A stretch of 64,000 nt of DNA from Thermoanaerobaculia bacterium (GCA_035525285.1 DATLFB010000033.1:4365-68364), one strand, 5' to 3'. Shown: positions 3,557 to 47,094, numbered from the stretch's first letter. Made by a program: numbers and translations. Notes: generated from the sequence alone by a model not told the origin.

Positions 3557-4125
3557 GACGACTTCTCCTTGCGCTGTTCGTCGCCGGTGCTGCGCTCGCG
3601 CAGGATCCGGAGTTCGTGCGGATGTGGGAGGAGGCGCAACAGCAGCGGCCTCGCTCGGTTGCCTCCGACGCGCGCATCGCTCCGCCGAACGAACCAGGCA
3701 CACCGCTCGTGGTTCATGGCCGCTTGTTTCAACGCAATGGCGCGACGCCGGTCGCGGGAGTGATCGTGTTCGCGTACCAGACGGATCGCACCGGCGTGTA
3801 CAACCGCAACAACGTGCGCGGATGGCGGCTGCGCGGCTGGGCGCGCACCGACGCCGAGGGACGCTTCACGTTCCGCACGATCCGTCCTGGAACATATCCG
3901 AATCGAAGCGCGCCCGCGCACATTCATCTCTCGATCCAGGGACCGGGCATGCCGCGGCGATGGACGAACGAAGTGCAGTTCGCGGATGACGCGCTGCACA
4001 CGCCGCGTGCGCGACGCGAGTCGGAAGCGGCGGGCGCGTTCGGATCGATCCGACCGGTGACGACGCGCGGGGGCGTGCAGCACGTCGAATTCCATTTGCG
4101 GCTCGAGGAAACGGGATTGTTTTGA
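3553..4125 (+). CDS. Secreted intradiol ring-cleavage dioxygenase-like protein
   Basis: GTG start overlaps the upstream stop (GTGA). Signal peptide, then ...TDAEGRFTFRTIRPGTYPNRSAPAHIHLSI, resembling the intradiol dioxygenase core (DxxGxYxFxTIxPGxYP...HIHF). Confidence 0.5.
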   Translation: MRRLLLALFVAGAALAQDPEFVRMWEEAQQQRPRSVASDARIAPPNEPGTPLVVHGRLFQRNGATPVAGVIVFAYQTDRTGVYNRNNVRGWRLRGWARTDAEGRFTFRTIRPGTYPNRSAPAHIHLSIQGPGMPRRWTNEVQFADDALHTPRARRESEAAGAFGSIRPVTTRGGVQHVEFHLRLEETGLF

Positions 4126-4177
4126 GGAGGGCGGACGTCCCGTCCGCCACTTCGGCGGACGGGACGTCCGCCCTCCT
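4126..4177. repeat. Palindrome family G (GGAGGGCGGACGTCCCGTCCGCC ... GGCGGACGGGACGTCCGCCCTCC)
   Basis: Sits between the convergent dioxygenase (+) and ftsY (-) genes. A bidirectional-terminator-like GC hairpin. Copies at 7407, 49305 and 58193. Confidence 0.8.
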
Positions 4178-5101
4178 TTACTCGAAGAGCGTGTCCACGT
4201 AGGTCTGCGGATCGAACGGGATCAGGTCATCCGCCCCCTCGCCCACCCCGACGAACTTCACCGGGATGTCGAACTGGCGCATGATCGAGAGGATCACGCC
4301 GCCTTTCGCGGTGCCGTCGAGCTTCGTGACGATCATGCCCGTCACCTTCGCCGCTTCGAGAAACGCGGCGGCCTGACTGACGCCGTTCTGGCCGGTCGTG
4401 CCGTCGAGCACGAGCAGCGTCTCGTGCGGCGCGCCGGGGAGCTCTTTGTCGATCACGCGATGGATCTTCGAAAGCTCCTGCATCAGATGCGATTTGTTGT
4501 GCAGGCGGCCGGCGGTGTCGATGAGCACGACGTCGGCATTGCGCGACTTCGCGGCGGAGACGGAGTCGTGCGCGACGGCAGCAGGATCCGAGCCGGCCTT
4601 GTGCTTCACGAGCGGTACGCCGATGCGATCTGCCCACATCTGCAGCTGCTCGATCGCGGCGGCGCGGAAGGTGTCGGCGGCGCCGAGGATCACGCTCTTC
4701 CCTTCGCTCTTCCAGCGTGAGGCGAGTTTGGCGATCGTCGTCGTCTTCCCGGTGCCGTTCACGCCGACGACGAGGATCACGAACGGCTTCGCGCGCGAGA
4801 GGTCGATCGTCTGCGCCGTGCGCTGCGGGATGAGCGCGCGCGTCTCGTGGCGGATCACTTCCGTGAGCCGCTCCATCTTCGTGATCTTCTCGTCGCGCAC
4901 GCGCTGCTCGACGCGCTCGACGAGCGAGGCCGTGAGCTCCGCGCCGACGTCGGCGCCGAGCAGGCCTTCCTCGAGGCCATCGATCGCGGATTGATCGATC
5001 GGAAGGTCGGGAGTCATCGACTCCTTCACCTTGTCGATGATCTCGGTGTGGGTCATGAAGAGCCCACGTTTGAGTTTGTCGAAGAGTGATTTTTCAGCCA
5101 T
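4178..5101 (-). CDS. ftsY: Signal recognition particle receptor FtsY
   Basis: LVVGVNGTGKTTTIAKLA...DTAGRLHNK...TKLDGTAKGG (SRP GTPase G1-G5 motifs). Confidence 0.9.
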   Translation of the reverse strand: MAEKSLFDKLKRGLFMTHTEIIDKVKESMTPDLPIDQSAIDGLEEGLLGADVGAELTASLVERVEQRVRDEKITKMERLTEVIRHETRALIPQRTAQTIDLSRAKPFVILVVGVNGTGKTTTIAKLASRWKSEGKSVILGAADTFRAAAIEQLQMWADRIGVPLVKHKAGSDPAAVAHDSVSAAKSRNADVVLIDTAGRLHNKSHLMQELSKIHRVIDKELPGAPHETLLVLDGTTGQNGVSQAAAFLEAAKVTGMIVTKLDGTAKGGVILSIMRQFDIPVKFVGVGEGADDLIPFDPQTYVDTLFE

Positions 5102-5111
5102 GCCTGTCTCG

Positions 5112-5210
5112 AGCGATGAGCGATGAACGATGAACGATGAACGATGAACGATGAACGATGAATCAGATCATCGATCATCGTTCATCGTTCATCGTTCATC
5201 GTTCATCGTT
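5112..5210. repeat. Heptamer-tandem hairpin, family D: (GATGAAC/CGATGAA)x5 - loop - (TTCATCG)x4
   Basis: gagcgatgaacgatgaacgatgaacgatgaacgatgaatcagatcatcgatcatcgttcatcgttcatcgttcatcgttcatcg. Confidence 0.85.
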
Positions 5211-6273
5211 TCGAGCTCCCGCTCTCCCTCGCCGCAATCGCCCTCTTCACCATCTCCTCATCGATCGTCAGCGCGCCGCTGCTGGTGGGCTCGAACTCCA
5301 GGTTCCGGATCACGCGCCGGTACGTCTCACGCAACGCTCGCGCGCCGAGGCGTTTCTGCCGCGAAGCGTCCCACGCGATGGCGATCAGCGCGCCGCGGGT
5401 GATCTGCAGATCGACGCCGAAGCGGCGGAAGTATTCGCGCGAGGTCCGAAAGATCGACGCCTCGGGCTCGACGAAGATGCGCGCGAGATCCGATTCGCCG
5501 AGGTCGTTGAGGACGATGATCGACTCGAAGCGCGAGATGAACTGCGGGGTCATGCCGTAGCGGAAGAGGTCGTCGTATTTGAGGTAGTCGCCGAGATGGA
5601 ACGGCAGCTCTTCGCGCACTTCCCCCGAGGCGGAGACGACGACGACCGGCTTCATCGCCACGACGTCCTGTCCGAGAGTGGCGCGGCGGAGCACGTTGTC
5701 GTAGAGCTCCTCGAACGCGCCGCCGGCGACGAAGAGGATGTGCGAGGAGTTGATGGCGAAGGTCATCCCGTCGGCTTCGAACTCGACGGTCTCGTTCTCC
5801 ATCAGCGTGAGCAGCGCTTCCTGCGCGACGATGCCGCGCACGTTCGGCGCGCCGCTGACATTCGCGCGGATCTTGTCGACTTCGTCGATGAAGACGATGC
5901 CGCGCTCGACGCCGCGGATGATCTGTTCGGGCGTCGCGCCCGCGCCGAGCATCTTCCGCGCATTCGCGTACAACCGCCCCAGGACGACTTTCCCATACCC
6001 CTGCCGCTCCTCGGCCAGCACATTCGCGTTGAGCCGCACGACGTTCGCGAACTGACGTAACGTCTCCGAGGCCACGAGATACTGCTCGACGGCGCGCATG
6101 AGCGTGGTCTTGCCGGAGCCGGAGTTCCCGATCAGCAGAATGTTCGGCGCGGGCTGGCCGACCAGATGCTTCACGAGCGCGACGGCGATCTCGCGGATCG
6201 CATCGTCCTGGCCGACGACCGAGATGCGCAACGCTTCGAAGATGTCTTTGGGTATCAGGGAAGAGTCAGACAT
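5203..6273 (-). CDS. AAA+ ATPase, ClpX/HslU-like (no N-terminal zinc-binding domain)
   Basis: VVGQDDAIREIAVAL...NILLIGNSGSGKTTLMRA (Walker A)...IVFIDEVDKI (Walker B)...ALLTLMEN. Confidence 0.6.
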   Translation of the reverse strand: MSDSSLIPKDIFEALRISVVGQDDAIREIAVALVKHLVGQPAPNILLIGNSGSGKTTLMRAVEQYLVASETLRQFANVVRLNANVLAEERQGYGKVVLGRLYANARKMLGAGATPEQIIRGVERGIVFIDEVDKIRANVSGAPNVRGIVAQEALLTLMENETVEFEADGMTFAINSSHILFVAGGAFEELYDNVLRRATLGQDVVAMKPVVVVSASGEVREELPFHLGDYLKYDDLFRYGMTPQFISRFESIIVLNDLGESDLARIFVEPEASIFRTSREYFRRFGVDLQITRGALIAIAWDASRQKRLGARALRETYRRVIRNLEFEPTSSGALTIDEEMVKRAIAARESGSSKR

Positions 6274-6299
6274 GCGCGGCGCGAATCGTAGCCGGACGG

Positions 6300-6430
6300 A
6301 GGGTAAAAGGTAAAAGGTAAAAGGTAGCCGGGGGAGGGTAAAAGGTAAAAGGTAAAAGGTAAAAGTGGCTCCGCCATTCGGCGCGCTTGCCGTTTTGCCT
6401 TTTACCTTTTTCCTTTTTCCTTTTACCTCT
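6300..6430. repeat. Heptamer-tandem hairpin, family B: (GGTAAAA)x3 + (GGTAAAA)x4 - loop - (TTTTNCC)x5
   Basis: gggtaaaaggtaaaaggtaaaaggtagccgggggagggtaaaaggtaaaaggtaaaaggtaaaag...ttttgccttttacctttttcctttttccttttacc. Confidence 0.85.
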
Positions 6431-7052: not shown

Positions 7053-7404
7053 ATTTATCGACGAGACGAATGAGATCCGCAAATTCAAAAGGCTTGCCCA
7101 TGTAGTCGTCCGCGCCGCAAACCCGCGCTTTCTCGGCGAGATCGAGGTCGCCGGAGAGGATGACGTACGGGATGTCGCGGGTCTCCGGCGTCGCCTTGAG
7201 CGTGCTGCAGAGCTGCTCGCCGCCCATCCCGCGAATCGTGAGGTCGGCGATGATCATCGCTGGCCTCGCCTCCTTCGCCCGCGCCAGCGCGCTGTTGCCG
7301 TCGGCGACGACGAGCGACTCGTGTCCGTGGCGCTGCAGCACGAGCGAGATCAGACGCGCGACCTGCGGATCGTCTTCGACCACGAGAATCAAAGTGCGCT
7401 CCAT
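7033..7404 (-). CDS. Single-domain response regulator (CheY-like receiver)
   Basis: MERTLILVVEDDPQVARL...MIIADLTIRGMGGEQL...GADDYMGKPF. Confidence 0.8.
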   Translation of the reverse strand: MERTLILVVEDDPQVARLISLVLQRHGHESLVVADGNSALARAKEARPAMIIADLTIRGMGGEQLCSTLKATPETRDIPYVILSGDLDLAEKARVCGADDYMGKPFEFADLIRLVDKYARAQG

Positions 7405-7406
7405 TG

Positions 7407-7463
7407 GAGGGCGGACGTCTCGTCCGCCCTGTTCACCAGGGGCGGACGGGACGTCCGCCCTCC
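7407..7463. repeat. Palindrome family G
   Basis: ggagggcggacgtctcgtccgccc...gggcggacgggacgtccgccctcc. Confidence 0.8.
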
Positions 7464-7939
7464 TAAATCGCGAATCGCACGCGAACGCTCTTGCGGGCGT
7501 GGCCGAGGGCCGCGCCGGCGAGAGCGCCGAAGGCGTTCGAGAGCGTGTCGTTGAGCGATGTGACGAGCGTCGGGAGCGACTGCTGCCAGAGATAGATCAT
7601 CGCCGCGAAGACCAGCGCGGCGAGAAATGTGATCGCGTACGTCCATTTGCGCGACCGCGAGGGCGCGTCGAGCGCGAGAAAGGCGAAGAAGCCCCACGGC
7701 ACGAACAGCAGCACGTTCGCGATCACCGGCATCAGAAACGCGAGCGCGGCGTGCCGCGAGAGAGGGCGATGGGAGCTGAGAAGGCGCGCCAGGAGCTCGC
7801 GGAACGGATGCGCGTCGGCGGCGTACGCTTTCCCGGAGAGAAAATAGATCAGCGCCGCCATCGCGGCGGTCGTCAGGAGCAGGAGCGCGATCGTGACCGG
7901 TTTGCGCACCGCCACGGTGTGAACCTGACGTTTTCCCAT
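7463..7939 (-). CDS. VanZ family membrane protein
   Basis: 158 aa, four predicted TM segments, ...LLFVPWGFFAFLAL... typical of VanZ-like proteins. Confidence 0.65.
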   Translation of the reverse strand: MGKRQVHTVAVRKPVTIALLLLTTAAMAALIYFLSGKAYAADAHPFRELLARLLSSHRPLSRHAALAFLMPVIANVLLFVPWGFFAFLALDAPSRSRKWTYAITFLAALVFAAMIYLWQQSLPTLVTSLNDTLSNAFGALAGAALGHARKSVRVRFAI

Positions 7940-8019: not shown

Positions 8020-10845
8020 TTGACCCGCTCCCCCGCCGCCGTCCTCATCGCCCCCTACCGCGAGATTGCCGCCGCCGTCGCCGCCCGTCTCGCCGCCGCG
8101 CGCGAGGGCTCCGATCCGCTCGACGCGTGGGCCGAAGAGGTGATCGTACCGTCGCGGGGGATGGCGGAGGCAATCTCGAATGAGTTGCTCGTGCGGACGC
8201 CGCGCGGCGTCGCGGGGGTGCAGATCCGCTTTCTGGACGAGCTCGCGCGCGCTCTCGTGAACGATGCGGGCGCGTTTCCGCGCGCAGCGTCGGATGCGGA
8301 GCGCCGGCTGGCGATGCGGATGGCGGTGCGCACGGTGCAGCATCCGATGATGGAGGGCCGCGGCGTGGCGGCGATGCTCGAGCGCTCGTATCGTGATCTG
8401 CGCGACAGCGGTCTCACGCTCGACGGCCTCTCCACGCGCGGCCTGCGCAATCCGCAGCGCACGCAGGCGATCCTCCGCGCATTCGCGGAGTACGAGCGCC
8501 TCATCGCACAGCTCGGCGCGATCGATCCCGCGGATCTCCTCGCGCAGGCGGAGCGCGTCGCGGAACACGCTCGTCCGCAACTGCTCGCCGGCTTCTACGA
8601 CATGACCGGCGCGCAAATGCGCTTCGTTCAGTCGCTGATGCCCCGTATCGCCGCAGTCTGGATTCCCACTGACATGCCGTTCGCCCAGCCGTTCATCGAA
8701 CGTAGCGGCGGGCTTCAGCCCGCCGGAAGCCGGCCGGCTGAAGCCGGCCGCTACGTTTCAGATGCAATGTCCTACGACACGAATCACGCCGAGCTGCGCG
8801 AGGTGTGCGCGCACGTCGCGGAGCTGCTGGAAGGGGGCGAGCAAAGCATCGCCATCACCGCTCGTTCCCTCGACCCCTACGCCATCCATCTCCTCAACCG
8901 CTTCGCCGCCGAGCACGGCTTCGCGACGACGCTGCCCGACGAAATCCCGCTCGCGGCCCATCGCATCGGCCGCGGCGTGCTGACGCTGCTCCGTCTGCGC
9001 GATCGCGGCTTTCCGCGAGGCGAGGTGCTGGAACTGGTGCGCGACGGCCTGCTCGCGCGCACGCGCATCGACGTCGATCGCGCGGACTACGAGACGCGCC
9101 GCGCGCACATCGCCGGCGGCACGAGCGAGGAGCTGGCGCCGCTGCGCAATCGTTCGCGCGCGCTCGACGAGTACATCGCGCTGGTGGCCGAGCTGGAGGA
9201 GTTGACCTCAGGGCTGCCCAGCTACCCGGCTGCCCGGCTACCCAGCACTTCGCCGGGAAGCCGGGAAGCCGGGAAGCCGGGGAGCCCACCGGAGCTCAGC
9301 AGTCTGTTTCGTGTCGAGACCGAGCTCGATCTCGTCGCGGCGGCGAGGCTCGACGAGATCGCGGCGCTGTTCCGGCGGACCGGACAGGCGGGATCGCCTG
9401 TCCTCCACGACCTCATCGACGCGATCGAGCAGGTGTCGCTGACGCAACCGCCGAGCGCGGGACCGAAGGTGTGGGCGGGCGATGTGATGCGCTTTCGCGG
9501 GCGCTCGTTCGCGCACGTGTTCGTCGTGCGGATGCAGGACGATGTGTTCCCGCAGCGGCGCACCGAGGATCCGCTGTTTCCCGATTCCGACCGCCGCGTC
9601 CTCGGGATGCGCGAGATCGGCGACGGGCGGGCGGAGGAGGAGCTGCTGCTGCAGCTCGTGCGCGAGTCCGCGGCGCACGTGCACTTCTCGTTCGCAAGCG
9701 GCGACGGGTTCGGCAAGGTGCTGCGGCCGTCACGGTATCTCCGCGGGCTTGACGTAGCGACCGACTTCAGCCGGTCGAAGGGCGGGCTGAAGCCCGCCCC
9801 TACGTTGTTGCGTCCCCTACAACTGCTCGTGAGGTCGGGAACGCGGTCCGTGTTCGACAGCTACCTCCCGATGCTTGCGGAGACCTTCCGCGCGCGCGTG
9901 CAGTCGGTGACGCCGACGCAGCTCGAGGACTTCGGCGAGTGTCCGCAGAAGTTTTTCTTCAAGCATCTCCTCGGCGTGCAGGAAGTCGAGCATCCCGAGC
10001 GCGAGCTGCAGATCCATCATCGCGAGAAGGGCTCGATCGATCACAAAATCCTCGAGCGCTTCTATCGCGCGCTGTCGTCCGCCGAGCTCGCGAACGCCGC
10101 GGCCGCGCTGCCGCGACTCCCCGACGCGCTCGCCGCGCGGCTCGACACGATCATCGACGAGACCTTCGACGAGCACGAGCAGCAGTTCCCGCCGTTCAAC
10201 CGCACGGTGCGCGGGATCGAGCGGCGCGCGACGAAGCGCATCCTCCGCGAGTTCCTCGCGGGCGACATCGCGGAGCTCACCGCCAGCGAGCTCGAGCCGC
10301 GCCACTTCGAGTACCGCTTCGGCGTCTCGCGCCGCGGCGCGTCGGATCATCCGGAGCCGTTCATCGTCCACGCGGGCGGCGTGCCGGTGCGCGTCGAGGG
10401 GACGATCGATCGCATCGACTACGGCGGGGCCGGCCTGCGCATCGTCGACTACAAGTCGGGAAAAGCAATCCGGCACAACTATCTGCCCGAGAAGATCGAT
10501 CGCGGCGTGCGGCTGCAGCTCGCGCTGTATGCGATGGCCGCCGCGGAGTTCTTCGACAACGCCAACGTCAGCGGCACGATCAAGCCGATCGTGACGGGCG
10601 AGCAGAAATTCAAGTTCGCGTTCGTGCTCGAGGAAAAGCGCGCGACGCTGCTCGAGACGCTCGAGATCTTCCTGCGCGCGATCACCGGCGGCATCTTCCC
10701 CGCGTTCCCGAACGACGAAGACTTCAACTCCTGCAAGTACTGTCCGGTGAGCCACTCGTGCCGCACGCGGCACGATCAGGAGGAGCGCTACGCCGTGCAG
10801 CAGCACCGCGATCCGCGCACGCTCCTCGGCGGAGGCGCGCCGTGA
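8020..10845 (+). CDS. AddB-like PD-(D/E)XK nuclease subunit of a two-subunit helicase-nuclease
   Basis: 941 aa. C-terminal nuclease motif IDRIDYGG..RIVDYKSGKA and Cys staple FGECPQKFF...DFNSCKYCPVSHSC (AddB-type Fe-S). Carries three in-frame palindromic elements (8700-8756, 9210-9290, 9757-9810). Confidence 0.7.
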   Translation: MTRSPAAVLIAPYREIAAAVAARLAAAREGSDPLDAWAEEVIVPSRGMAEAISNELLVRTPRGVAGVQIRFLDELARALVNDAGAFPRAASDAERRLAMRMAVRTVQHPMMEGRGVAAMLERSYRDLRDSGLTLDGLSTRGLRNPQRTQAILRAFAEYERLIAQLGAIDPADLLAQAERVAEHARPQLLAGFYDMTGAQMRFVQSLMPRIAAVWIPTDMPFAQPFIERSGGLQPAGSRPAEAGRYVSDAMSYDTNHAELREVCAHVAELLEGGEQSIAITARSLDPYAIHLLNRFAAEHGFATTLPDEIPLAAHRIGRGVLTLLRLRDRGFPRGEVLELVRDGLLARTRIDVDRADYETRRAHIAGGTSEELAPLRNRSRALDEYIALVAELEELTSGLPSYPAARLPSTSPGSREAGKPGSPPELSSLFRVETELDLVAAARLDEIAALFRRTGQAGSPVLHDLIDAIEQVSLTQPPSAGPKVWAGDVMRFRGRSFAHVFVVRMQDDVFPQRRTEDPLFPDSDRRVLGMREIGDGRAEEELLLQLVRESAAHVHFSFASGDGFGKVLRPSRYLRGLDVATDFSRSKGGLKPAPTLLRPLQLLVRSGTRSVFDSYLPMLAETFRARVQSVTPTQLEDFGECPQKFFFKHLLGVQEVEHPERELQIHHREKGSIDHKILERFYRALSSAELANAAAALPRLPDALAARLDTIIDETFDEHEQQFPPFNRTVRGIERRATKRILREFLAGDIAELTASELEPRHFEYRFGVSRRGASDHPEPFIVHAGGVPVRVEGTIDRIDYGGAGLRIVDYKSGKAIRHNYLPEKIDRGVRLQLALYAMAAAEFFDNANVSGTIKPIVTGEQKFKFAFVLEEKRATLLETLEIFLRAITGGIFPAFPNDEDFNSCKYCPVSHSCRTRHDQEERYAVQQHRDPRTLLGGGAP
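8700..8756. repeat. Palindrome family J (CGTAGCGGCGGGCTTCAGCCCGCCG...CGGCCGGCTGAAGCCGGCCGCTACG), intragenic and in-frame
   Basis: Perfect inverted repeat inside the addB-like CDS (encodes RSGGLQPAGSRPAEAGRY). Copies at 9757 and 54664. Confidence 0.8.
9210..9290. repeat. Family I-like element inside the addB-like CDS, in-frame
   Basis: ctgcccagctacccggctgcccggctacccagcacttcgccgggaagccgggaagccgggaagccgggg encodes LPSYPAARLPSTSPGSREAGKPGSPP. Confidence 0.7.
9757..9810. repeat. Palindrome family J, intragenic
   Basis: gcgaccgacttcagccggtcgaagggcgggctgaagcccgcccctacg within the addB-like CDS. Confidence 0.7.
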
Positions 10846-13800
10846 TGCAGAAGGCATTCGAGTGGGGGACCGGCAAACCTGCCGGTCCGGACAGGCGAGA
10901 TCGCCTGTCCTCCACCTCGCGTCGCAACGTCGTCATCGAAGCGGGCGCGGGAACGGGAAAGACGACGGCGATCGTGGCCGAGGTGCTGAAGCTGATGCTC
11001 GAGCGCGCGGAGCTCGCGCCGGAGCGCATCGTGCTGATGACGTTCACGGAGAAGGCCGCGGGCGAGATCGCGGATCGGATCCGGACAGCGCTCGAGGAGC
11101 TCTCCCAGTCTCCGGCTCTCACCTGGCCCATCGACTCCGCGCATCCCCTCCTCACGATCGACGACCCCGACTCCGCGCGCCGCGCGATCGCGCATCATCT
11201 CGCCAACATCGACGCGCTGCGCTCGCAGACGATCCACTCGTTCTGCCAGTCGCTGCTGCGCACCTTCCCGATCGAGGCGGGGCTCGATCCGCAGTTCAAG
11301 ATCATCGAAGGCTTCGAGCGCTCGCTGCTCTACGGGCAGCTGTACGACGCGTGGATCGATCAGGAGACGCGCGTCCATCCGACGGAGGAGGGAGTGCGCG
11401 AGTGGGAGCTGCTCTTCGCGCACGCCGGCTATCTCTTCCAGATCCGCGATCTGATCCTCGGCATGATCGATCGCCGCGATCTGCTCGAGGAGACGGGCTA
11501 CGACTTCGGCACGCTCGAAGAAGTCGAAGAGAAGCTGATCGATGCACTCGTCGCGATCCGCCGCTGCGGCGATACGGTGGGCGACGAGCAGGCGCAGCGA
11601 ATCTTCGCGTACGTCCGCGAGACCGATCCGCCGGCGCCCGGCGACATCGATCGCTGGCTCGAGTATCTCCATCCGATCGCCGCTTCGATCCGCGATGCGA
11701 ATCTGCCGCGCCACGGAATCCTCAAGGAGGCGCTGAAGATCCTGCGCGGCAAGGAGTCGAAGGGGCGCTCGGTCTACGACTATCTCGTGCGCCACCGTGC
11801 GGCAATCGCGCTGCTCGCGCTGACGCGGCGTTTCCTCGCCTACCTCGACGAGGAAAAGCGCCGCCTCGGCGTCGTCGACTTCGACGATCTGCTGCTCCGC
11901 ACGCTCGCGCTGCTCGACGACGCGGGCGTGCTGGCCCGCGCGCGCGCGCAGTTCGATTTCATCTTCGTCGACGAGTTTCAGGACACCGACCGCACGCAGG
12001 CGCGAATCATCGACCGCCTCGCGCGCGACGCGTCGGGCACATACGTCGCGGGCAAGACGATCGTGGTCGGCGATCCGAAACAGTCGATCTACGGATTCCG
12101 CCGCGCCGATCCGGAGACGTATTACCGGATGACGGAAGGTCTCGTGGCCGGCGGAGCGGAGCGGCGCGTGATCGCGGATCAGTACCGCAGCGATCCGCCG
12201 CTGCTCGACGCCGTGAACGCGCTCTTCGCACGGCTTTTCCCCGACACGCTGCAACACGACCCGAACGTGTTCCGCCCGCGTTACACGCCGCTGCGCGCGG
12301 CGCGCGAGTCGTCGCGCCGCGAGCTCGATGCGCGGATCACGCTGCTGCACGCGCAGCACGACGACGCGGCGGATAAGTTCATCGTCGAGGCGGAGGCGAT
12401 CGCGAAGTGGATCAAGGCGCGCGCGGAAGGCGATCTGCGGCGCTTCGCGATCCTCTTCCGGCGCCTGACGAAGCTCGACGATTATCTCGACACGTTCGAT
12501 CGCCACGGCATCGACTACGTGCTCCCGCCGACGCGCATGTTTCTCGACCGCCGCGCGCCGGTCGATCTGCTGGCGGTACTGCGAGCGATCGCCTACCCGT
12601 TCGATCACGGCGCGCAGATCTCGGCGGCAAGGACGCCGTACTTTGCGCTGACGGATGAGGAGATCGCGGAAGGGGTGCTGCGTGCTGCGTGCAGCGTGCA
12701 GGAGGGCGACGTGACGCAGCACGCAGCACGCAGCACGCAGCACCCGTGGACGGCATTCGTCGCCGCCATCGCCCGCTTCCGCGACCACGCCCGCCATCTC
12801 ACCGCCTCCCAGCTCATCGACCTCGTCATCACCACGACCGGCATCGAGCGCGTGTACGACGCCGCGGCGGACGGCGTGCGCCATCTGCGGCATCTCGAGC
12901 ACGTGCGCGCGATCGCGTTCGAGTACGACCAGCGCACGGGCGGATCGGTCGGACAATTCGTCGGGGAGATCTCGCAGCGGCGCGGCGAGCCGGACGAGAT
13001 CGAGCCGAGCCTGATCGACGAGTCGAAGAACGCGGTGCGGATCATGTCCGTGCACGCGGCAAAGGGGCTCGAGTTCGAGACGGTCATCCTCCCCGACCTC
13101 GCCGTGCAGCCGCCGTCGAACGACACGCAACTCTTCACCGTCGAGGAGCCGCGCAGCCTCGTGCTCGCGGGGCGCGTGGAGTCGATCTCGGCGAACTTCC
13201 GCTTCGCGAACGGCGAGAAACTGAAGCGCATCAACGCGCGGCGCGAGGAGGCGGAGACGCGGCGGCTGTTCTACGTCGGCGTCACGCGCGCGAAGACGGA
13301 CGTCGTGTTCGTCTGCAATCTCGCCGAGGAGACGAAGAACGTTGGATTCCTGCGCTGCCTGTGCGAGGGGCTGGGGATCGAGAAGAACGCGCTCACGGGA
13401 ATGTTCGTCGATGGACGCACGGTCCATGCGACAGAGATTGGGGATGTTGCGTTCGAGCGGGTGTGGAGTGCGGCAACGCCAGTTGCCGCTGTCGTAGGAA
13501 AGCGGCGACTGGCGTCGCCGCACTCCACACTCGAAGCGGAGCTCGCGACAGGCGGGATCGTCCCGTGCGAGATCGCCGCGCCCTCCCCTGTCACCGCGCG
13601 TCTCGCGACGAGCGAAGTGGCCGCGCGCCGCGCCGGCTCCCGCAATCGCGCGGCGGGCATCCTCCTGCATCGCGTCCTCGAGCGCTGGGACGGACGTGCC
13701 GATACCGAGCCGCTGCTGAAGCAGCTCGCGGTCGAGACCGCGGCGGAGGAGGAGGCGGTCGCGCGCGTACGCCGGCGGCTGGCCACGGTCGCGCGCTCCG

Positions 13801-14102
13801 CGACCCTGCAGCGCATCGCGAGCGCGGAGACGATCGGCCGCGAGGTGCCGGTGCGTTTCGTCGAGGAAGGCGCACTCGTCGAGCGCCGCATCGATCGCCT
13901 GCTGCGCGAGAACGGCGCGGAGCTCGTCGTCGACTACAAGAGCGGCGCGGCCGAGGAGTCGCGCGTCGCGAAAGACCGCGAGCACGTCGAGCGGTACTGC
14001 CGCGCGATCTCCGGCATCACCGGCCGCCCGTGCAGCGGGCTCCTCTGGTACGTCGATGTGGAGAACGACGTCGTCGTGGAGGTGCTGCGTGCTGCGTGCT
14101 GA
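10845..14102 (+). CDS. AddA-like ATP-dependent helicase-nuclease (UvrD-type helicase with C-terminal PD-(D/E)XK nuclease)
   Basis: Start ATG overlaps the addB stop (TGATG). VVIEAGAGTGKTTAIV (Walker A)...FIFVDEFQDTD...VVGDPKQSIYGFRRAD...C-terminal ELVVDYKSG nuclease motif. The ORF-track start at 9939 is an antisense-style extension. Confidence 0.8.
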   Translation: MQKAFEWGTGKPAGPDRRDRLSSTSRRNVVIEAGAGTGKTTAIVAEVLKLMLERAELAPERIVLMTFTEKAAGEIADRIRTALEELSQSPALTWPIDSAHPLLTIDDPDSARRAIAHHLANIDALRSQTIHSFCQSLLRTFPIEAGLDPQFKIIEGFERSLLYGQLYDAWIDQETRVHPTEEGVREWELLFAHAGYLFQIRDLILGMIDRRDLLEETGYDFGTLEEVEEKLIDALVAIRRCGDTVGDEQAQRIFAYVRETDPPAPGDIDRWLEYLHPIAASIRDANLPRHGILKEALKILRGKESKGRSVYDYLVRHRAAIALLALTRRFLAYLDEEKRRLGVVDFDDLLLRTLALLDDAGVLARARAQFDFIFVDEFQDTDRTQARIIDRLARDASGTYVAGKTIVVGDPKQSIYGFRRADPETYYRMTEGLVAGGAERRVIADQYRSDPPLLDAVNALFARLFPDTLQHDPNVFRPRYTPLRAARESSRRELDARITLLHAQHDDAADKFIVEAEAIAKWIKARAEGDLRRFAILFRRLTKLDDYLDTFDRHGIDYVLPPTRMFLDRRAPVDLLAVLRAIAYPFDHGAQISAARTPYFALTDEEIAEGVLRAACSVQEGDVTQHAARSTQHPWTAFVAAIARFRDHARHLTASQLIDLVITTTGIERVYDAAADGVRHLRHLEHVRAIAFEYDQRTGGSVGQFVGEISQRRGEPDEIEPSLIDESKNAVRIMSVHAAKGLEFETVILPDLAVQPPSNDTQLFTVEEPRSLVLAGRVESISANFRFANGEKLKRINARREEAETRRLFYVGVTRAKTDVVFVCNLAEETKNVGFLRCLCEGLGIEKNALTGMFVDGRTVHATEIGDVAFERVWSAATPVAAVVGKRRLASPHSTLEAELATGGIVPCEIAAPSPVTARLATSEVAARRAGSRNRAAGILLHRVLERWDGRADTEPLLKQLAVETAAEEEAVARVRRRLATVARSATLQRIASAETIGREVPVRFVEEGALVERRIDRLLRENGAELVVDYKSGAAEESRVAKDREHVERYCRAISGITGRPCSGLLWYVDVENDVVVEVLRAAC
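12683..12742. repeat. Heptamer-tandem hairpin, family F: (GTGCTGC)x3 - loop - (CAGCACG)x4, inside the addA-like CDS and in-frame
   Basis: gtgctgcgtgctgcgtgcagcgtgcaggagggcgacgtgacgcagcacgcagcacgcagcacgcagcac encodes VLRAACSVQEGDVTQHAARSTQH. Confidence 0.8.
13448..13540. repeat. Unique palindromic hairpin inside the addA-like CDS
   Basis: gtggagtgcggcaacgccagttgccg...cggcgactggcgtcgccgcactccac (in-frame: VWSAATPVAAVVGKRRLASPHST). Confidence 0.6.
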
Positions 14103-14140
14103 GTGCTACGCGGCACGCGGCACGCGGCACGCAGCACTAC
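14085..14140. repeat. Heptamer-tandem hairpin, family F (GTGCTGC / GCACGCG arms)
   Basis: gtgctgcgtgctgcgtgctgagtgctacgcggcacgcggcacgcggcacgcagcac. Overlaps the addA stop, between addA and marC. Confidence 0.8.
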
Positions 14141-16504: not shown

Positions 16505-16831
16505 ATGGACAAACCGCGAATCTTCCTGGGCTCGTCAGGAAAGCAGGAGAAACTGCTGCAGGCGCTGACACGCGGTCTCGAAGACGTCGCGCACGTAGAA
16601 GCGCCGCAACTGGACGGGACGGGAGAGATCCGAGTCGAATCCGCCGATCGCGCGGACGGGTACTTCACGACTCATTCGGACACTCACCCCAAAGTCAACA
16701 CAAGGACGTCCGGCGTCTATCTGCGCGCCGATCCGGAGGACTTGAACATCCTGGATGGACGCGGCAACCGGCAACGCGCGGAGTTGATTGCGGAGCGTCT
16801 GAGAGACTGGAAGTCGATCACGAACGTGTGA
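16505..16831 (+). CDS. Hypothetical protein
   Basis: 108-aa ORF with no recognisable motif. Lies at the edge of the lower-GC islet. Weak call. Confidence 0.25.
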   Translation: MDKPRIFLGSSGKQEKLLQALTRGLEDVAHVEAPQLDGTGEIRVESADRADGYFTTHSDTHPKVNTRTSGVYLRADPEDLNILDGRGNRQRAELIAERLRDWKSITNV

Positions 16832-16894
16832 GATCGGTTAGTGAGACGCCGCGCTTTCGGCGACGTTCTCGGCTCGTCGCGTTCGACTGCGACA

Positions 16895-17188
16895 CTAACG
16901 AGCCAGCTTGCGCCAATAACCAGGGCGCCTGCTTTCGTGCGCGACCGCGACGACGTTTACTGTGTTGCTCTCTACGAAATAGACAAGAGAGTATGGATAC
17001 GTCGGGAAAACGTACCGCTGCGTTCCGGCGATGTAGCGCGGCCACCGGTGCGGAGCCTCTACGATGAGATCAACGGCATGATCCAGCTCGCGTAGGAAGC
17101 CGGCTTCGGCCACTTCACTCTGATCCCGGTACCACTTGCGGGCCTCTTCGACTTCGTCGTCAGCCGCCTCGAAGAAATGTGGCTGCAT
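16895..17188 (-). CDS. Type II toxin, RelE/ParE family
   Basis: 97 aa; ...RWPRYIAGTQRYVFPTYPYSLVYFVESNTVNVVAVAHESRRPGYW, typical ParE/RelE C-terminus. ATGA overlap with the upstream antitoxin. Confidence 0.7.
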   Translation of the reverse strand: MQPHFFEAADDEVEEARKWYRDQSEVAEAGFLRELDHAVDLIVEAPHRWPRYIAGTQRYVFPTYPYSLVYFVESNTVNVVAVAHESRRPGYWRKLAR

Positions 17189-17418
17189 TAACGATCGAGG
17201 CGATGCAAACGAGCTCGGACTTCCGCCCAGGGAATGGTCTTTACTCTGCCCGCTCGGTAGTCTTCCATGCGTCGCTGAATTTCAGCGGCCCAAGCCTCCT
17301 CGACTCCTTCATCCCGCACCTCTTCGATGCTCTCGAGGAGGAGGCCTGCGAGCTCGGCACGCTCGCCGGGGGGTAGCTCTGCTGCCTTGGCGTAAAGTTC
17401 CTGGACGTCGCGCGTCAT
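17188..17418 (-). CDS. Antitoxin (putative addiction-module component, ParD-like)
   Basis: 76 aa acidic protein, ...ELPPGERAELAGLLLESIEE...AWAAEIQRRMEDYRAG, immediately upstream of and overlapping the ParE-like toxin. Confidence 0.6.
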   Translation of the reverse strand: MTRDVQELYAKAAELPPGERAELAGLLLESIEEVRDEGVEEAWAAEIQRRMEDYRAGRVKTIPWAEVRARLHRLDR

Positions 17419-17702
17419 GCGGCGATTCTAGCGCGAAACCGTTCGAGCGATCTCTGCGCATGCGTTGCCGAGGGTGCTCGTGGGCGCCGAGCTGCTGACA
17501 ATCAGGTCTCTGCGCTGCGGCGGGCGTCACGCGCGTGGAGCAATGCGGCGCGGCGGCTGCCGCGCCACGAATGCTTTTGACGGCGGCGCGATGTGCCGCC
17601 GACGTGCCGCCGTCCAGCTACGATGTTCCCGAGCCGGCTCGGCCGGCGGGCCGGACAGCAGCCCGCCCGTCGGCTCCTGTGTGGAGTTAAGCCGCGGCGG
17701 CC

Positions 17703-18407
17703 CTACACTGGTGATGAGAAGTGCTCGAGCAGGAAAGGCTCCAAAAAGCCGAGCAGACTCGAAACGTCCGCTTCCGCGATCCTTGACCAGTCCGCATGCA
17801 TCGCAGCATTCCTCAATTTGACGTAGGACGCAACAATTGGCCCCTGTGCGCCGCCTAAAATCCCCTTTGATTTGAGCGCGTTCATGACGGCGTCCAACGT
17901 CTTGTTGCCGACCGCCAGATCGAGTTCTAGCGCCTTGCGCTTTAGAGCGTCTTCTAGCGCCGCCGACGCTAATACCGCGGCCACATCCTTGTATCCGGCT
18001 TTCAACTGCGTCCTGGCAAGCGCCACAAGATCGCCAATAACTACACCAGCGGCTTCGGTCGCGATGCTGTTGATCAAACCCAGTTCAATTTCTTCGGCCG
18101 TATTGCGAAGCACCGCATCCAACGATTCCGCGAACGACTGTATGCGTTTGTTTGTATAACCTAAAGGTGTCGAGAGCTTATGCATCTCCATGAGTGCCTT
18201 GATCTGTGGCGACGTCGAGCCGTATAGACTAGTCGCGATATTCAGTGCCCCGGCGAAAACAGCGTCCACTTCGGTGCGCGCGTCTGCTCTCCCAAGCTCG
18301 TGCGGGTTTGCAACTCGGCTTCGCAATTTCTGGATGCGCGTGAGGTATGCCTCACGGCGCTGCGATACATTCATGGGCGGAGAATATAGCACTTCACTCC
18401 TGTCCAA
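17703..18407 (-). CDS. HEPN-like (DUF4145-type) protein
   Basis: 234 aa in a lower-GC stretch. C-terminal ...KLRNAAMHADW fits the HEPN Rx4-6H motif. Confidence 0.4.
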   Translation of the reverse strand: MDRSEVLYSPPMNVSQRREAYLTRIQKLRSRVANPHELGRADARTEVDAVFAGALNIATSLYGSTSPQIKALMEMHKLSTPLGYTNKRIQSFAESLDAVLRNTAEEIELGLINSIATEAAGVVIGDLVALARTQLKAGYKDVAAVLASAALEDALKRKALELDLAVGNKTLDAVMNALKSKGILGGAQGPIVASYVKLRNAAMHADWSRIAEADVSSLLGFLEPFLLEHFSSPV

Positions 18408-18992
18408 ATTAGCTTTTGAGAAACAGCGCTCAGATGGGCGTCGCCCGCAAGAGAACGTCGCTGAGTCTCGTTTCCGGCCACGAAACCAGCCATGGACGCC
18501 ACTTTCCGAGGCTCTATCAGGCAGGACGGACGCGGTCCAGCCGGGCTGGCAATTTGGACAGCAGCCAAGGAAGGAAGGGGTCTCATCTCGCGAACGTTAC
18601 CGGAGCGTCGTGTTTTCAATAAGTTAGGAGCGCGATTTTGTCGATTCACAGCTAATTTGGACAGCAGTGATAGCACTTACGTCGGCCGACAAGGCCATTG
18701 GAGGTATAAATGAAACAGCCGACCAGACGGCTCAAAACTCGTCGGCCCAACAGCTTTTTCGTTCCACATCCCCATCCACCCTCGTAATCGGCAGATATTT
18801 TCTGTATAGGAGGCGCATGTGCCGCGCCACCCGGCCGTGTGATCGCCGGACGTCTTCTGTGGCTTGTGTCGACAGAGTATTTACGTTCTCGACCCGTCGG
18901 ACATGCGCGTCGGATTTGCGGCCGCCGCAGCGCTTCCGCGAGCGAACGACAATCATTTTTCGGCGCCGTCTGAAGCGCAAAACCGCGCGCGC

Positions 18993-19247
18993 CTACGGCG
19001 AGAGCCGCTCGATGATCCAATCCTTCGGCTCGCGCAATCGATACACGATGCGGTCGTGCAGGCGATCGGCTCTCCCCTGCCAGAACTCGACCGGGATCAC
19101 GCGGTAGCCACCCCAGTGCGGGGGGCGTGGGATCTGGCGGTCGCGGTACGTCGCTTCGAGCTCCGCGAAGCGGAGCTCGAGATCGACGCGGCCGTGGATG
19201 ACCGCGCTCTGGTTCGAGGCCCAGGCATTATCGGAGTCGTGTTTCAA
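18993..19247 (-). pseudogene. Duplicated 3' fragment of pdxH (last ~84 codons)
   Basis: Translation [77 protein letters not shown] is ~95% identical to the C-terminus of intact pdxH (19711..19960). The DNA forms a direct repeat of about 250 bp. Confidence 0.75.
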
Positions 19248-20322: not shown

Positions 20323-21002
20323 GAAACACTCCTCTCACGCAGCAGGCGCTCGATCTTGCGGAGGACACGCAGCGACTCGGCGTGCGGCATGAGCGCGGCC
20401 GCCGGGTCGAGCGCGACCCAGGCGAGCTCGTTCGACTCGCCGCGGTCGATGGTGATGGCATCGGGGCTCGACGTGCGTGCGAGATATCGCACGTCGAAGT
20501 GATCGTGGTCCGGCTCATGGCGCGCCGCGGGGATTTTGTGGATGTCGAGATCGAAGATGGCCGTGGCGCTGGCGCGGATTGAGGATTGAGGATTGAGGAT
20601 GGCGCTGGCGCGGATTGAGGATTGAGGATTGAGGATAGCGCTGGCGCGGATTGAGGATTGAGGATTGAGGATTGAGGAAGGAGGGAGCAGCTCGAGATCG
20701 GTGAGGCCCGACTCCTCGGCGCCCTCGCGGAGCGCGGCGGCATCGGGCGTTTCATCGCCTTCGACGTGCCCGCCCATCTGCAGCCAGCGATCGAGGCGGC
20801 GGTGATGATGGAGGAGCAGGCGGCCGCCGTCATCGATGATGAAGCAGCTCGCGGTGACGTGTCCCGGCGCGAAGTGCGCGCGCGAGAAGGGCTCGGCGGC
20901 GTCGCGCACGAGATCGAGCATCGCATGGCGATGCCCCGCCTCGAGCTCGTCGGCGGGCTCGTAGGCTCGGAGCTCTTCGAATAGTCGCGCGGCGCGGGAC
21001 AT
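20319..21002 (-). CDS. NUDIX hydrolase with an internal 3 x 13-aa tandem repeat
   Basis: Start at MSRAARLFEEL (ATG 21002). Nudix box GGHVEGDETPDAAALREGAEESGL. The ORF-track extension to 22256 is antisense to the kinase gene. Confidence 0.8.
   Translation of the reverse strand: MSRAARLFEELRAYEPADELEAGHRHAMLDLVRDAAEPFSRAHFAPGHVTASCFIIDDGGRLLLHHHRRLDRWLQMGGHVEGDETPDAAALREGAEESGLTDLELLPPSSILNPQSSIRASAILNPQSSIRASAILNPQSSIRASATAIFDLDIHKIPAARHEPDHDHFDVRYLARTSSPDAITIDRGESNELAWVALDPAAALMPHAESLRVLRKIERLLRERSVS
20571..20690. repeat. Direct tandem repeat, 3 x 39 bp (ggcgctggcgcggattgaggattgaggattgaggat), inside the NUDIX CDS
   Basis: In-frame. Encodes (ILNPQSSIRASA)x3 between the Nudix box and the C-terminal region. 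The unit itself contains (GATTGAG)x3. Confidence 0.85.
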
Positions 21003-25677: not shown

Positions 25678-25775
25678 GAGTTGAGAAAATTGAAAATTGA
25701 AAATTGAAAATTGAAAAAAGAGCGAACGGGCCCGTGCTGCGGCCTCCTTTTTCAATTTTCAATTTTCAATTTCAC
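25678..25775. repeat. Heptamer-tandem hairpin, family A (AAATTGA)x4 ... (TCAATTT)x3
   Basis: gagaaaattgaaaattgaaaattgaaaattgaaaaaagagcgaacgggcccgtgctgcggcctcctttttcaattttcaattttcaatttcac. Between coxB and ctaA inside the operon. Confidence 0.85.
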
Positions 25776-25782
25776 ATTGGCG

Positions 25783-26804: not shown

Positions 26805-26935
26805 TCGATGGTTACCCGGCTGCCCGGTTGCCCGGCGGCGCAGTGCGGGTGCCTGCGCCTTTGCGTGATGTGGCGCCGCCCCCCGGACGGCGCCGCCGGG
26901 AAACCGGGAAACCGGGAAACCGCCCCCCGTCACGG
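26805..26935. repeat. Palindromic element, family I (longest copy)
   Basis: ggttacccggctgcccggttgcccgg...ccgggaaaccgggaaaccgggaaaccgcc, between two small ORFs of the oxidase operon. Confidence 0.8.
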
Positions 26936-30162: not shown

Positions 30163-30271
30163 CCATCCTCCTCAGTCCCCTCTCCCCCCGGGAGAGGGTT
30201 AGGGTGAGGGGCGTCCCCTCATCCGGCCTCCGGCCACCTTCTCCCCGCAAGCGGGGAGAAGGGACTGCTTG

Positions 30272-31087
30272 TTACCCCTTGAACGTAAAGCTCACCTGCT
30301 TCGACTCTTTCGGTCCCACCGTCACGGCCTGCTCCTGCTGGCCGTACTTCTCGTGCCATGCGACGAGCGTGTAGTTGCCCGGCGGGAGGTTGGCGATCGA
30401 GAACGTGCCGTTCATCTGCGAGACGCTGTGATACGAGTGCGGCAGCACGACCATGTAGGACTTCATCCAGCCGTGCACGTCGCACTTGATGCGGAACGGC
30501 GTCATCTCGACCTTGTCGAACTTCTGATCCGACACCATTCCCTGCACCGGCTGTCCCACGTTGAACGCGCGGTTGACCTCCGGCATCGCGTGGACGTTGT
30601 GCAGCGTGGCGTCGCTGTTCCTGATCTGGATCTTCTGGCCCGCCTGCACCGCGCTGACGTGCGGGATGTACTTGCAGCCTTGCTGATCGAGCAGAGCGGG
30701 CGTCGACGGCGCCGGCGTCGCGGGCGCGTTTTTCACGTAGACGATGACGTTCGCGAGCTCGCCTGCGGGACCGACGACGACTTCTTCGTCGAGCGCGGGC
30801 GTCGGATGCTGCGAGGCGCAATACGGATCGGCGCCCATCTGCAGCGCCGGCATCTTCGGCGGCGCTGCGGCTTCGAACTTCACGAGACCGTTGAGCGTCG
30901 CGGCATCGGCAACGACCGCGGTTGCGGCGGCGGCGGGTGCTGCGGTATCGCCCGCGGCGGTTTCGGTGGCCTTCGGCGCGCCGTCATCTTCGCCGAGGTC
31001 GGCTTCGTCGACGACTTCCTTGCCGCCGCCGCAGGCGACTGCGAGGAGGAGCGCGAAGAGCAGAGCGAGATACTTCCTGTGGGGCAT
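30272..31087 (-). CDS. Cupredoxin-like (type-1 copper) lipoprotein between the bc-type complex and the oxidase
   Basis: Start at MPHRKYLALLFALLLAVAC (lipobox). Candidate copper ligands ...ATLHNVHAMPE... and ...KCDVHGWMKSYM (Cx2Hx2M). The N-terminal 25 aa of the ORF-track call come from palindrome H. Confidence 0.45.
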   Translation of the reverse strand: MPHRKYLALLFALLLAVACGGGKEVVDEADLGEDDGAPKATETAAGDTAAPAAAATAVVADAATLNGLVKFEAAAPPKMPALQMGADPYCASQHPTPALDEEVVVGPAGELANVIVYVKNAPATPAPSTPALLDQQGCKYIPHVSAVQAGQKIQIRNSDATLHNVHAMPEVNRAFNVGQPVQGMVSDQKFDKVEMTPFRIKCDVHGWMKSYMVVLPHSYHSVSQMNGTFSIANLPPGNYTLVAWHEKYGQQEQAVTVGPKESKQVSFTFKG

Positions 31088-31097
31088 TGAATCTCCT

Positions 31098-34487: not shown

Positions 34488-34593
34488 ATAAAGGCAGAAG
34501 GCAGAAGGCAGAAGGCAGAAGTGAGAACCGTGACACGGCGCGTGACGCGTGCCTTTCTTACTTCTGCCTTCTGCCTTCTGCCTTCTGCCTTCA
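34488..34593. repeat. Heptamer-tandem hairpin, family C: (GAAGGCA)x4 - loop - (TGCCTTC)x4
   Basis: aaaggcagaaggcagaaggcagaaggcagaagtgagaaccgtgacacggcgcgtgacgcgtgcctttcttacttctgccttctgccttctgccttca. Confidence 0.85.
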
Positions 34594-36618: not shown

Positions 36619-36643
36619 CCAGCCCCCAACGAGTTGTCACGAA

Positions 36644-36726
36644 GCTCTTAGCTCTTAGCTGTTAGCTCTTAGGACATCGCCGTCGCCGGCCTTTCCTAAG
36701 AGCTAAGAGCTAAGAGCTAAGAGCTC
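36644..36726. repeat. Heptamer-tandem hairpin, family E: (GCTCTTA)x4 - loop - (TAAGAGC)x4
   Basis: aagctcttagctcttagctgttagctcttaggacatcgccgtcgccggcctttcctaagagctaagagctaagagctaagagctc. Confidence 0.85.
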
Positions 36727-37318: not shown

Positions 37319-37349
37319 CTATCGGTGAAAACGGGAAGGTAGTCAAGCC

Positions 37350-37436
37350 GAACGATGAACGATGAACGATGAGCGATGAACGATGGTTCAACGCTCTGTT
37401 TCATCGCTCATCGTTCATCGTTCATCGTTCATCGTT
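37350..37436. repeat. Heptamer-tandem hairpin, family D (GATGAAC)
   Basis: gaacgatgaacgatgaacgatgagcgatgaacgatggttcaacgctctgtttcatcgctcatcgttcatcgttcatcgttcatcg. Confidence 0.85.
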
Positions 37437-38262: not shown

Positions 38263-38268
38263 GCGTTG

Positions 38269-38348: not shown

Positions 38349-38358
38349 GCCTCCGCAC

Positions 38359-42266: not shown

Positions 42267-42278
42267 AGAACAAAGCCA

Positions 42279-44595: not shown

Positions 44596-44597
44596 AC

Positions 44598-47085: not shown

Positions 47086-47094
47086 GGATCAAAT

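Follow-up and report, generated by a model that had tools for sequence, protein, structure and literature searches.

Seven palindromic repeat elements of five families in a predicted addB-addA operon of a soil Acidobacteriota bacterium

How two adjacent genes for a predicted helicase-nuclease can stay open throughout while carrying one strong hairpin after another is the question raised by an operon in a 64,000-nucleotide stretch of DNA (hereafter the window) from a Thermoanaerobaculia bacterium (GCA_035525285.1 DATLFB010000033.1:4365-68364), an uncultured soil member of the Acidobacteriota. The G+C content of the window is 65%. A preliminary description had located five in-frame palindromic insertions in an addB-like gene and the addA gene that follows it, and had ascribed them either to a target preference or to a high tolerance of these proteins. 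All five were found where they had been placed, and the count has risen to seven elements of five families, six of them in frame inside the genes. The explanation that we consider probable is that selfish palindromic repeats have colonised addB-addA and persist where reading frame and protein fold tolerate them.

All seven elements are described on the plus strand. Three lie in addB. J1 (8699-8757) is a REPIN-like doublet of GTAG-tagged repetitive extragenic palindromic (REP) units, consisting of GTAGC+GGCGGGC-TTCA-GCCCGCC and an inverted partner; its 28-nt arms are 93% complementary and it encodes ERSGGLQPAGSRPAEAGRYV (AddB residues 227-246). Element I (9211-9287) is a tandem-octamer hairpin (GGCTGCCC/GGCTACCC versus CCGGGAAG) encoding LPSYPAARLPSTSPGSREAGKPGSPP (residues 398-423), with octamer arrays at 9212-9243 and 9252-9286 for which Tandem Repeats Finder (TRF) reported a period of 8. 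J2 (9752-9805), the second GTAG-tagged REP doublet, occupies the linker preceding the AddB nuclease domain and encodes DVATDFSRSKGGLKPAPTL (residues ~578-596). It is composed of GTAGC-GACCGAC-TTCA-GCCGGTC and an inverted GTAGG-GGCGGGC-TTCA-GCCCGCC, was overlooked by the repeat finder, and folds as a three-way 'clover' of an outer stem and two hairpins. The J core GGCTGAAGCC occurs four times in the window against 0.22 expected. The remaining four elements belong to addA, and two of them, K and F2, are additions to the five first reported. K (10863-10917), recognised by direct reading of the sequence, is a doublet of GTGGAG-tagged hairpins that encodes WGTGKPAGPDRRDRLSST in frame (AddA residues 7-25). 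F (12673-12745) is a tandem GTGCTGC heptamer hairpin with 27-nt arms of 96% complementarity and a TRF period of 7 in both; it encodes GVLRAACSVQEGDVTQHAARSTQH (residues ~610-634). U (13458-13533), a doublet of GTGGAGT-tagged hairpins with 36-nt arms of 89% complementarity, encodes RVWSAATPVAAVVGKRRLASPHSTLE (residues 872-897). F2 (14082-14137), a second GTGCTGC heptamer hairpin with 25-nt arms of 88% complementarity, lies at the junction with a MarC-family gene and supplies the last six addA residues (VLRAAC) and the TGA stop; AddA orthologues end in ...VVEV and do not have VLRAAC.

Folding energies were computed for single-stranded DNA and expressed as z scores against 200 shuffles. Values of -34.8 kcal/mol (z = -8.7) for J1, -35.9 kcal/mol (z = -5.9) for I, -21.5 kcal/mol (z = -4.9) for J2, -38.7 kcal/mol (z = -7.5) for F, -42.3 kcal/mol (z = -10.1) for U and -31.7 kcal/mol (z = -6.8) for F2 were obtained. 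The five first-reported hairpins span -21.5 to -42.3 kcal/mol and z = -4.9 to -10.1, and none of the 200 shuffles equalled any of them. The peptides quoted for them in the preliminary description are exact.

The hosts are an addB-like gene (8020-10845, plus strand, 941 aa), with a helicase-like N-terminal part and a C-terminal PD-(D/E)XK nuclease with four conserved cysteines, and an addA-like gene (10845-14102, plus strand, 1085 aa), a UvrD-type superfamily 1 (SF1) helicase with a C-terminal PD-(D/E)XK nuclease, whose start overlaps the addB stop. Both open reading frames (ORFs) run without interruption, in agreement with the earlier claim that every element preserves the frame, and both are annotated as intact at NCBI (AddB, HUP59763.1; AddA, HUP59764.1) in a Thermoanaerobaculia metagenome-assembled genome (MAG). 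The names AddB-like and addA proved correct, since domain, profile and structure matches, invariant residues and conserved gene order all point to them. AddB residues 630-915 match PF12705 in Pfam (E = 4e-35), a profile of AddB and its homologues matches B. subtilis AddB in the PDB (3U44_B, E = 9e-9), and the best Foldseek matches of the AlphaFold2 model are 4CEH_B (E = 1.5e-25) and 3U4Q_B (E ~1e-25), with a template modelling (TM) score of 0.49. Homologues show no variation in the nuclease DYK motif (D810, Y811, K812) or in the helicase motifs, and C641, C905, C908 and C914 are likewise invariant in 32 sequences. The four cysteines flank the nuclease domain, and we take them to be the ligands of the iron-sulfur cluster of AddB, a cluster that is here predicted. 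AddA carries PF00580 (UvrD-helicase, 1e-51), PF13361 (UvrD_C) and PF12705, and it matches RecB (1e-28) and AddA (3U44_A, 4e-23). The addB-addA order is conserved, with both genes detected in 38 of the 43 species-representative loci of the class, and the ORF downstream of addA belongs to the MarC family (PF01914). The operon is an AddB/AddA pair with predicted helicase-nuclease activity. An annotated pseudogene had been suspected for AddA when the protein was absent from its own homologue search, and was ruled out by the intact NCBI annotation. The absence arose because HUP59764.1 (P0241/P0242) is filed in a 90%-identity cluster represented by an unrelated 55-aa SCO1 fragment, a database artefact.

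The elements differ in what they have done to the length of the proteins, as measured by the residues between conserved anchors in homologues and in the window. At the I site the window has 30 aa, the longest linker found, where the median of 111 homologues is 8 aa; the segment is a gap in all 31 aligned homologues and is present in the window alone among the 111. I is a clean insertion. At the F site the linker spans 8-68 aa in 121 homologues (median 20) and 31 aa in the window; the loop is short in several orthologues, and others hold different repeat-derived peptides there. The AddA N-terminus, the K site, has a median of 16 aa in 118 homologues and 25 aa in the window, a length matched in only 2 of the 118. 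These three sites are the only ones with a net gain. J1 (35 aa in the window, median 36 aa, n = 119), J2 (22 aa, median 23 aa, n = 120) and U (17 aa, median 14 aa, n = 120) replace a linker of about the usual length, and for these three of the six in-frame elements 'replacement' fits better than 'insertion'. The earlier view of the elements as in-frame insertions and lineage-specific indels, for which an alignment had been proposed as the check, thus stands for I, F and K and gives way to replacement for J1, J2 and U. None of the segments is conserved across distant orthologues; such conservation had been named as fatal to that view.

At the J1 site one subclade keeps a native conserved sequence (...AEVVRDPAIEIRK...) that has been replaced by the repeat in this lineage. 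U swaps ~14 native residues for 17, and its right arm (13494-13533) encodes KRRL where orthologues have a nearly invariant RRRL (around AddA residue 885). That alignment had made U a candidate for an inverted duplication of native coding sequence, which identical arms in other species rule out: the U arm has 27-30-nt 100% matches in the species loci L010 and L001, in the latter as an inverted doublet inside addB, and a weaker match in L004. The hairpin, previously reported at 13448-13540 as unique, is so within the window only. The KRRL motif may mean either that the repeat was kept because it recreated the motif or that microhomology guided its arrival.

AlphaFold models built from alignments had a mean predicted local distance difference test score (pLDDT) of 77.6 for AddB and 74.0 for AddA. 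The internal low-confidence coil of the AddB model comprises residues 234-237, 401-423 and 583-619, which correspond to J1, I and J2, respectively; pLDDT dips to 54-63 in J1, is ~40 in the coil of I and is below 50 over residues 583-619 in J2. In the AddA model K, F and U match the low-confidence segments 1-24, 619-630 and 877-887, respectively, each with pLDDT below 50, and four other flexible segments are not repeat-derived. As modelled, all six in-frame elements fall in low-confidence coil loops. This location, together with the presence of other families in the same linkers elsewhere, bears out the high tolerance that had been suggested for these proteins.

The phenomenon recurs throughout the class. 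Strong hairpins, defined by arms of 16 nt or more, were counted directly in 43 other species, with genes called by a heuristic based on G+C at third codon positions (GC3) and with neighbours that are a largely identical syntenic set in each species. Inside addAB (215 kb) 27 were found, whereas 119 kb of coding DNA nearby had 0 in its interior (binomial p = 6.8e-6); 55 further hairpins are intergenic or at gene ends. At least one strong addAB hairpin is present in 20 of the 43 species. In the window, six of the eight elements lying well inside genes are in addAB, an operon that accounts for about one-ninth of the coding DNA. In the other species the hairpins are concentrated around AddB residues ~200-250 and 490-595 and around AddA residues ~73-89 and 585-650, and they belong to J, K and U, to a 'CHPERSEG...' type and to tandem-unit hairpins of period 7, 8 and 10. 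Recurring hairpins share linkers yet differ in family and reading frame; in the same AddB linker, J reads ERSGGLQPAG... in the window and DVGRGFSPPPPGEGGLKPRPT in L014.

In 14 of 34 orthologues the DNA of the J2 linker shows unusually strong folding. Peptides of the QQPATSNQQ- and RQPPTAN-type occur in the pre-nuclease linker of AddB in L004, L007, L009, L012, L014, L016 and L035; since they translate single (GTTGCTG)n/(CCAGCAA)n arms, much of this linker appears repeat-derived class-wide, even where it forms no hairpin. Host proteins are 56-69% identical between species, whereas the repeat arms are near-perfect and identical across species, so the copies must be much younger than the species splits. 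Young copies at shared linkers in turn argue for repeated independent arrival, or turnover, at those linkers.

Which families enter genes depends on their stop codons. Stop-rich families, with fewer than three of six frames open (among them CGATGAA, AATTGAA, AGCTCTT and GGTAAAA), have 0 of 10 copies in coding sequence, against 9 of 24 for families with at least three open frames (Fisher p = 0.025). The intragenic copies, six here and 27 in orthologues, all preserve the frame and have no in-frame stop, the orthologue copies being read through in single tblastn segments. M, a family of inverted doublets of GGAGGGCGGACGTCCCGTCCGCC (4122-4180, 7404-7465, 49302-49365 and 58191-58247), is found between genes or at a 5' end; it is open in four to six frames, yet no window copy is clearly inside a gene.

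AddAB is not the only host. Coding overlap in the window amounts to two of three copies for J, four of five for K and the single copy of U. One K doublet (55970-56023) lies in frame in the amidase domain of GatA, at residues ~89-107 (...VGDRQSCLSGQAGLPVLHS...), another (50891-50951) lies in frame in a linker of a DUF4388/receiver protein, and a third (31104-31162) forms, in frame, the C-terminus of a multihaem cytochrome. Beyond the window, at least 120 stretches of soil metagenomes (L044-L163) contain the K 25-mer. Among the matches listed, 38 of the 99 K elements that could be classified (~38%) are inside ORFs with a coding signature on both sides; 25 of these ORFs pass a stricter test, 20 of the 25 were scanned against Pfam, and 18 gave a match. 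The hosts include ABC-F and other ABC ATPases, an aromatic amino-acid (HAL/PAL) lyase, methyltransferases, GATase, FdhD, ArgJ, polyprenyl synthase and TPR/CycH proteins, and two of the 20 scanned are DnaE, where the element sits between the HhH and OB domains. Recurrent K-encoded peptides in metagenomes are GGQAILPVR, GQAGLPVLH, EDRQSCLS and DRRDRLSST. The functions of the K hosts are unrelated to one another. The operon that had been singled out as a host of hairpins is indeed enriched in them, but it shares the families with GatA, the DUF4388 protein and diverse metagenome enzymes.

The window as a whole contains ~34 such hairpins, about one per 2 kb, mostly in short gaps between co-directional genes, including those of the cytochrome oxidase, bc-complex and other operons. 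Two architectures are seen. In one (J, K, U and M) a tagged hairpin of 20-25 nt is present as an inverted doublet, and in the other (F, I and others) the hairpin arms are built from tandem 7- or 8-nt units. Copies elsewhere in the window number five for I, all outside genes, two for F, one for J and four for K. The J unit is GTAG[C/G] followed by a 7-bp stem and a TTCA loop. Five of six J half-sites fit this strict pattern, pairing at six to seven of seven positions, and the sixth, recognised by direct reading of the sequence, has a TACA loop. A search with the strict pattern returned the stems GGCGGGC, GGCCGGC and GACCGGC, each with its matching complement, and GCCCGGC was read directly with its own; the J stems covary, since four different stem sequences each keep pairing. 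All three J loci are inverted doublets, two of them inside addB, and in other species J encodes the peptides GGLKPAAPQ and AGFSP, with a copy in the addB of L014. K units consist of GTGGAG and GGACAGGCAATCCTGCCTGTCC, their doublets of GTGGAGGACAGGCAATCCTGCCTGTCC and its inverse, and the copies measure 54-76 nt. The U unit is GTGGAGT followed by GCGGCGAC-GCCA-GTCGCCGC, and that of M is GGAGG followed by GCGGACG...CGTCCGC.

Among the tandem-unit families the octamer GGTTGCCC has six copies, AATTGAA, CGATGAA, GAAGGCA and GTGCTGC have three each, and GGTAAAA and AGCTCTT one each. A unit is thus represented by one to six near-identical copies, with conserved arms and variable loops. The tandem 7- or 8-nt-unit hairpins in gaps between co-directional genes are located at 920-1016, 2464-2561, 2877-2953, 5111-5213, 6288-6428, 25680-25778, 26810-26922, 34488-34594, 36641-36734, 37345-37440, 38265-38352, 38874-38968, 42276-42370, 44597-44672, 47093-47181, 51692-51789 and 52715-52805. 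Other Thermoanaerobaculia have the same architecture with other units, of periods 7-10. At 20564-20684 three direct 36-nt repeats, each of TGGCGCTGGCGCG and three GGATTGA heptamers, lack an inverted partner and form no hairpin, unlike every other tandem-unit array in the window. Scanned in full against Rfam at gathering thresholds, the window gave no match. Two stretches, 16831-18993 and 30162-31098, show no third-position GC coding signature, no ORF by the heuristic and no Rfam match.

Taken as selfish repeats that persist where they are tolerated, the elements would have been copied into genes in the same way in which they multiply between genes. With the GTAG-tagged J, the most likely mover would be a REP-associated tyrosine transposase (RAYT) of the HUH type, acting on single-stranded hairpins. 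Copies would then survive only if the frame used contained no stop, if the frame was kept and if the site was a disordered surface loop or an inter-domain linker. The six in-frame copies would be transcribed and translated as 18-26-residue segments rich in Gly, Pro, Ser, Ala and Arg, and such inserts would be neutral. Where linker length matters, arrival would be accompanied by loss of native residues, which would yield replacement instead of net insertion. AddAB may gather elements repeatedly and independently across the class because it has several length-tolerant linkers.

A number of observations weigh against this explanation. Translation of the segments is deduced from the DNA. No RAYT or other transposase was found among the ~35 window ORFs scanned against Pfam over the 64 kb, and none beside clustered K repeats in two metagenome contigs (L065 and L073). 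[quoted passage not shown] J1, J2 and U take the place of native residues with almost no change in length, and U carries a KRRL that imitates a conserved motif; simple transposition predicts neither. The enrichment of 27 against 0 is perhaps too large for pure tolerance, and it must be noted that the test rests on GC3 heuristic gene calls and on neighbours that are mostly the same syntenic genes. Finally, intragenic REPs are concentrated in DNA-repair genes in other phyla as well (PMC3733652).

The last two points also speak for the reading that survives best beside it, a targeted or adaptive link with DNA repair, in which palindromes are preferentially inserted into, or selected in, break-repair genes. 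Altered AddAB might favour the repeats or generate mutator or recombinator variants, as hypothesised by Di Nocera et al. (2013; PMC3733652), or strong hairpins in the mRNA, placed at domain boundaries, could adjust AddB:AddA expression, the stability of the mRNA or folding during translation. The addAB hairpins of the 43 species, the six of eight window elements, the two DnaE among the 20 Pfam-scanned K-bearing ORFs (among the matches listed) and the position of elements at domain boundaries would all suit such a link. The same families, however, are found in frame in GatA, ArgJ, the HAL/PAL lyase, FdhD, ABC ATPases, methyltransferases and polyprenyl synthase, and all insertions lie in low-confidence loops, as tolerance predicts. 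About half of the species have no strong addAB hairpin, and comparison of the flanks of all copies revealed no common target or insertion motif. In addition, differing families, frames and orientations fill the same linker across species, so that no particular sequence or peptide is conserved. A repair link seems unlikely to us, and it is kept alive because tolerance may not explain the enrichment and the similar bias in other phyla. One may speculate further, and we regard this as doubtful, that AddAB and other repair-replication enzymes are a preferred or selected landing site, and that the tandem 7/8-nt hairpins (I, F and about eight others here; period 7-10 class-wide) form an undescribed mobile class and are possible builders of linkers. 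If this were true, attenuation or retuning of the enzyme acting on breaks at cleaved hairpins could, for example, favour a genome with thousands of palindromes.

It is highly improbable that the hairpin segments are missing from the mature protein, whether by excision from the mRNA or because the ribosome skips them. In favour of this stands the great stability of the hairpins (-21 to -42 kcal/mol as DNA); against it, every intragenic copy is in frame and stop-free, stop-containing families are never inside genes, and no known RNA family matches the region; frame-keeping and stop exclusion are expected only with translation. Least credible of all is an artefact or chance, by misassembly of the MAG or by compositionally biased native low-complexity linkers that happen to self-complement, given that the segments match copies in the window and in other species nearly base for base, that MAGs of many independent projects and assemblers contain the same phenomenon, and that shuffles never fold equally well.

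The probable colonisation of addB-addA by selfish repeats, filtered by frame and fold, is relevant beyond this operon. The locus provides a well-replicated case, across 44 genomes and in a new phylum, for the question why 'extragenic' repeats inside genes favour DNA-repair enzymes, and it indicates that a copy passes selection only when it contains no stop, keeps the frame and sits in a disordered loop. Selfish repeats that repeatedly overwrite or supply the inter-domain linkers of an essential-type enzyme would represent a route by which mobile DNA shapes proteins. On the practical side, repeat segments inflate the apparent divergence and length variation of AddAB and can mislead annotation and protein clustering.

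Repeats of short tandem units are familiar from cyanobacteria, in which short tandemly repeated repetitive (STRR) heptamer arrays consist of tandem 7-nt direct units and are abundant and mostly intergenic. The TAACTGA arrays of Beggiatoaceae are likewise direct 7-nt arrays, mostly intergenic, whose stop-containing units are excluded from reading frames, and only one inverted pair is reported among them (PMC4679880). The arrays described here share with them the tandem 7-nt units, the mostly intergenic location and the exclusion of stop-containing units from frames. In contrast to the TAACTGA arrays, all except the one at 20564-20684 are paired with an inverted array and form a hairpin, many units coexist, and stop-free units occur in frame inside genes (PMC4679880). 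Our literature searches brought up neither an account of dispersed families of paired heptamer-array hairpins nor one of such repeats in Thermoanaerobaculia or Acidobacteria.

REPs are imperfect palindromes of 20-40 nt, and a GTAG at one end defines their largest superfamily; GTAG/CGTC REPs have been described within the ORFs of recBCD, uvrABCD/UvrD, polA and dnaE, sometimes as the sole genes tagged, and some of these are hit twice (PMC3733652). The REPs surveyed by Di Nocera et al. and the repeats here are short tagged palindromes, often in inverted dimers that encode 20-30 aa, they are mostly found between co-directional genes (REPs also between convergent ones), and some supply stops; J in particular has both the GTAG tag and the dimer arrangement (PMC3733652). 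The host, however, is here a member of the Acidobacteriota, as opposed to Proteobacteria, Verrucomicrobia and others in that survey, and the host genes are AddAB and not RecBCD, with seven elements of five families together in a single operon. Hairpins of tandem 7- or 8-nt units, to which two of these families belong, are not described there, and the same linkers are reused in about half of 43 species (PMC3733652). REPINs, in turn, which RAYT transposases mobilise, are two inverted REPs with a short spacer that form a long hairpin or a 'clover' and occur in dispersed families (Bertels and Rainey 2011; PMC3116915). J, K, U and M share this anatomy, but REPINs were defined as extragenic while coding overlap is common here (J 2/3, K 4/5, and U in its single copy; PMC3116915). 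At the sequence level J has the features of both a REP and a REPIN, being a GTAG-tagged imperfect palindrome whose inverted doublets fold to a hairpin.

In behaviour, there is a parallel with the Rickettsia palindromic elements (RPEs) of Ogata et al. (2000, 2002). As summarised in PMC10969869, RPEs are palindromes that lie in frame in unrelated housekeeping genes and are translated, at sites compatible with the protein fold; they measure ~100-150 bp, and each family, in alpha-proteobacterial hosts that are obligate intracellular, encodes a conserved peptide. The in-frame palindromes in AddB, AddA, GatA, the DUF4388 protein and diverse metagenome enzymes, which in AddAB are predicted to occupy low-pLDDT loops, resemble them. 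K in particular behaves in an RPE-like manner, with four of five window copies overlapping coding sequence and, among the matches listed, ~38% of classifiable metagenome copies in ORFs. The elements here differ from RPEs so described in measuring 54-77 nt, in residing in free-living soil bacteria and in using several frames and orientations. They work like RPEs and are not members of an RPE family, from which size and host set them apart, and no kinship in sequence is expected. In-frame palindromes in Rickettsia (PMC10969869) and intragenic REPs in repair genes (PMC3733652) have thus already been described. New are the in-frame tandem-heptamer and -octamer hairpins, the phylum, AddAB as host, the load of seven elements of five families in a single operon, and the reuse of the same linkers in about half of the 43 species.

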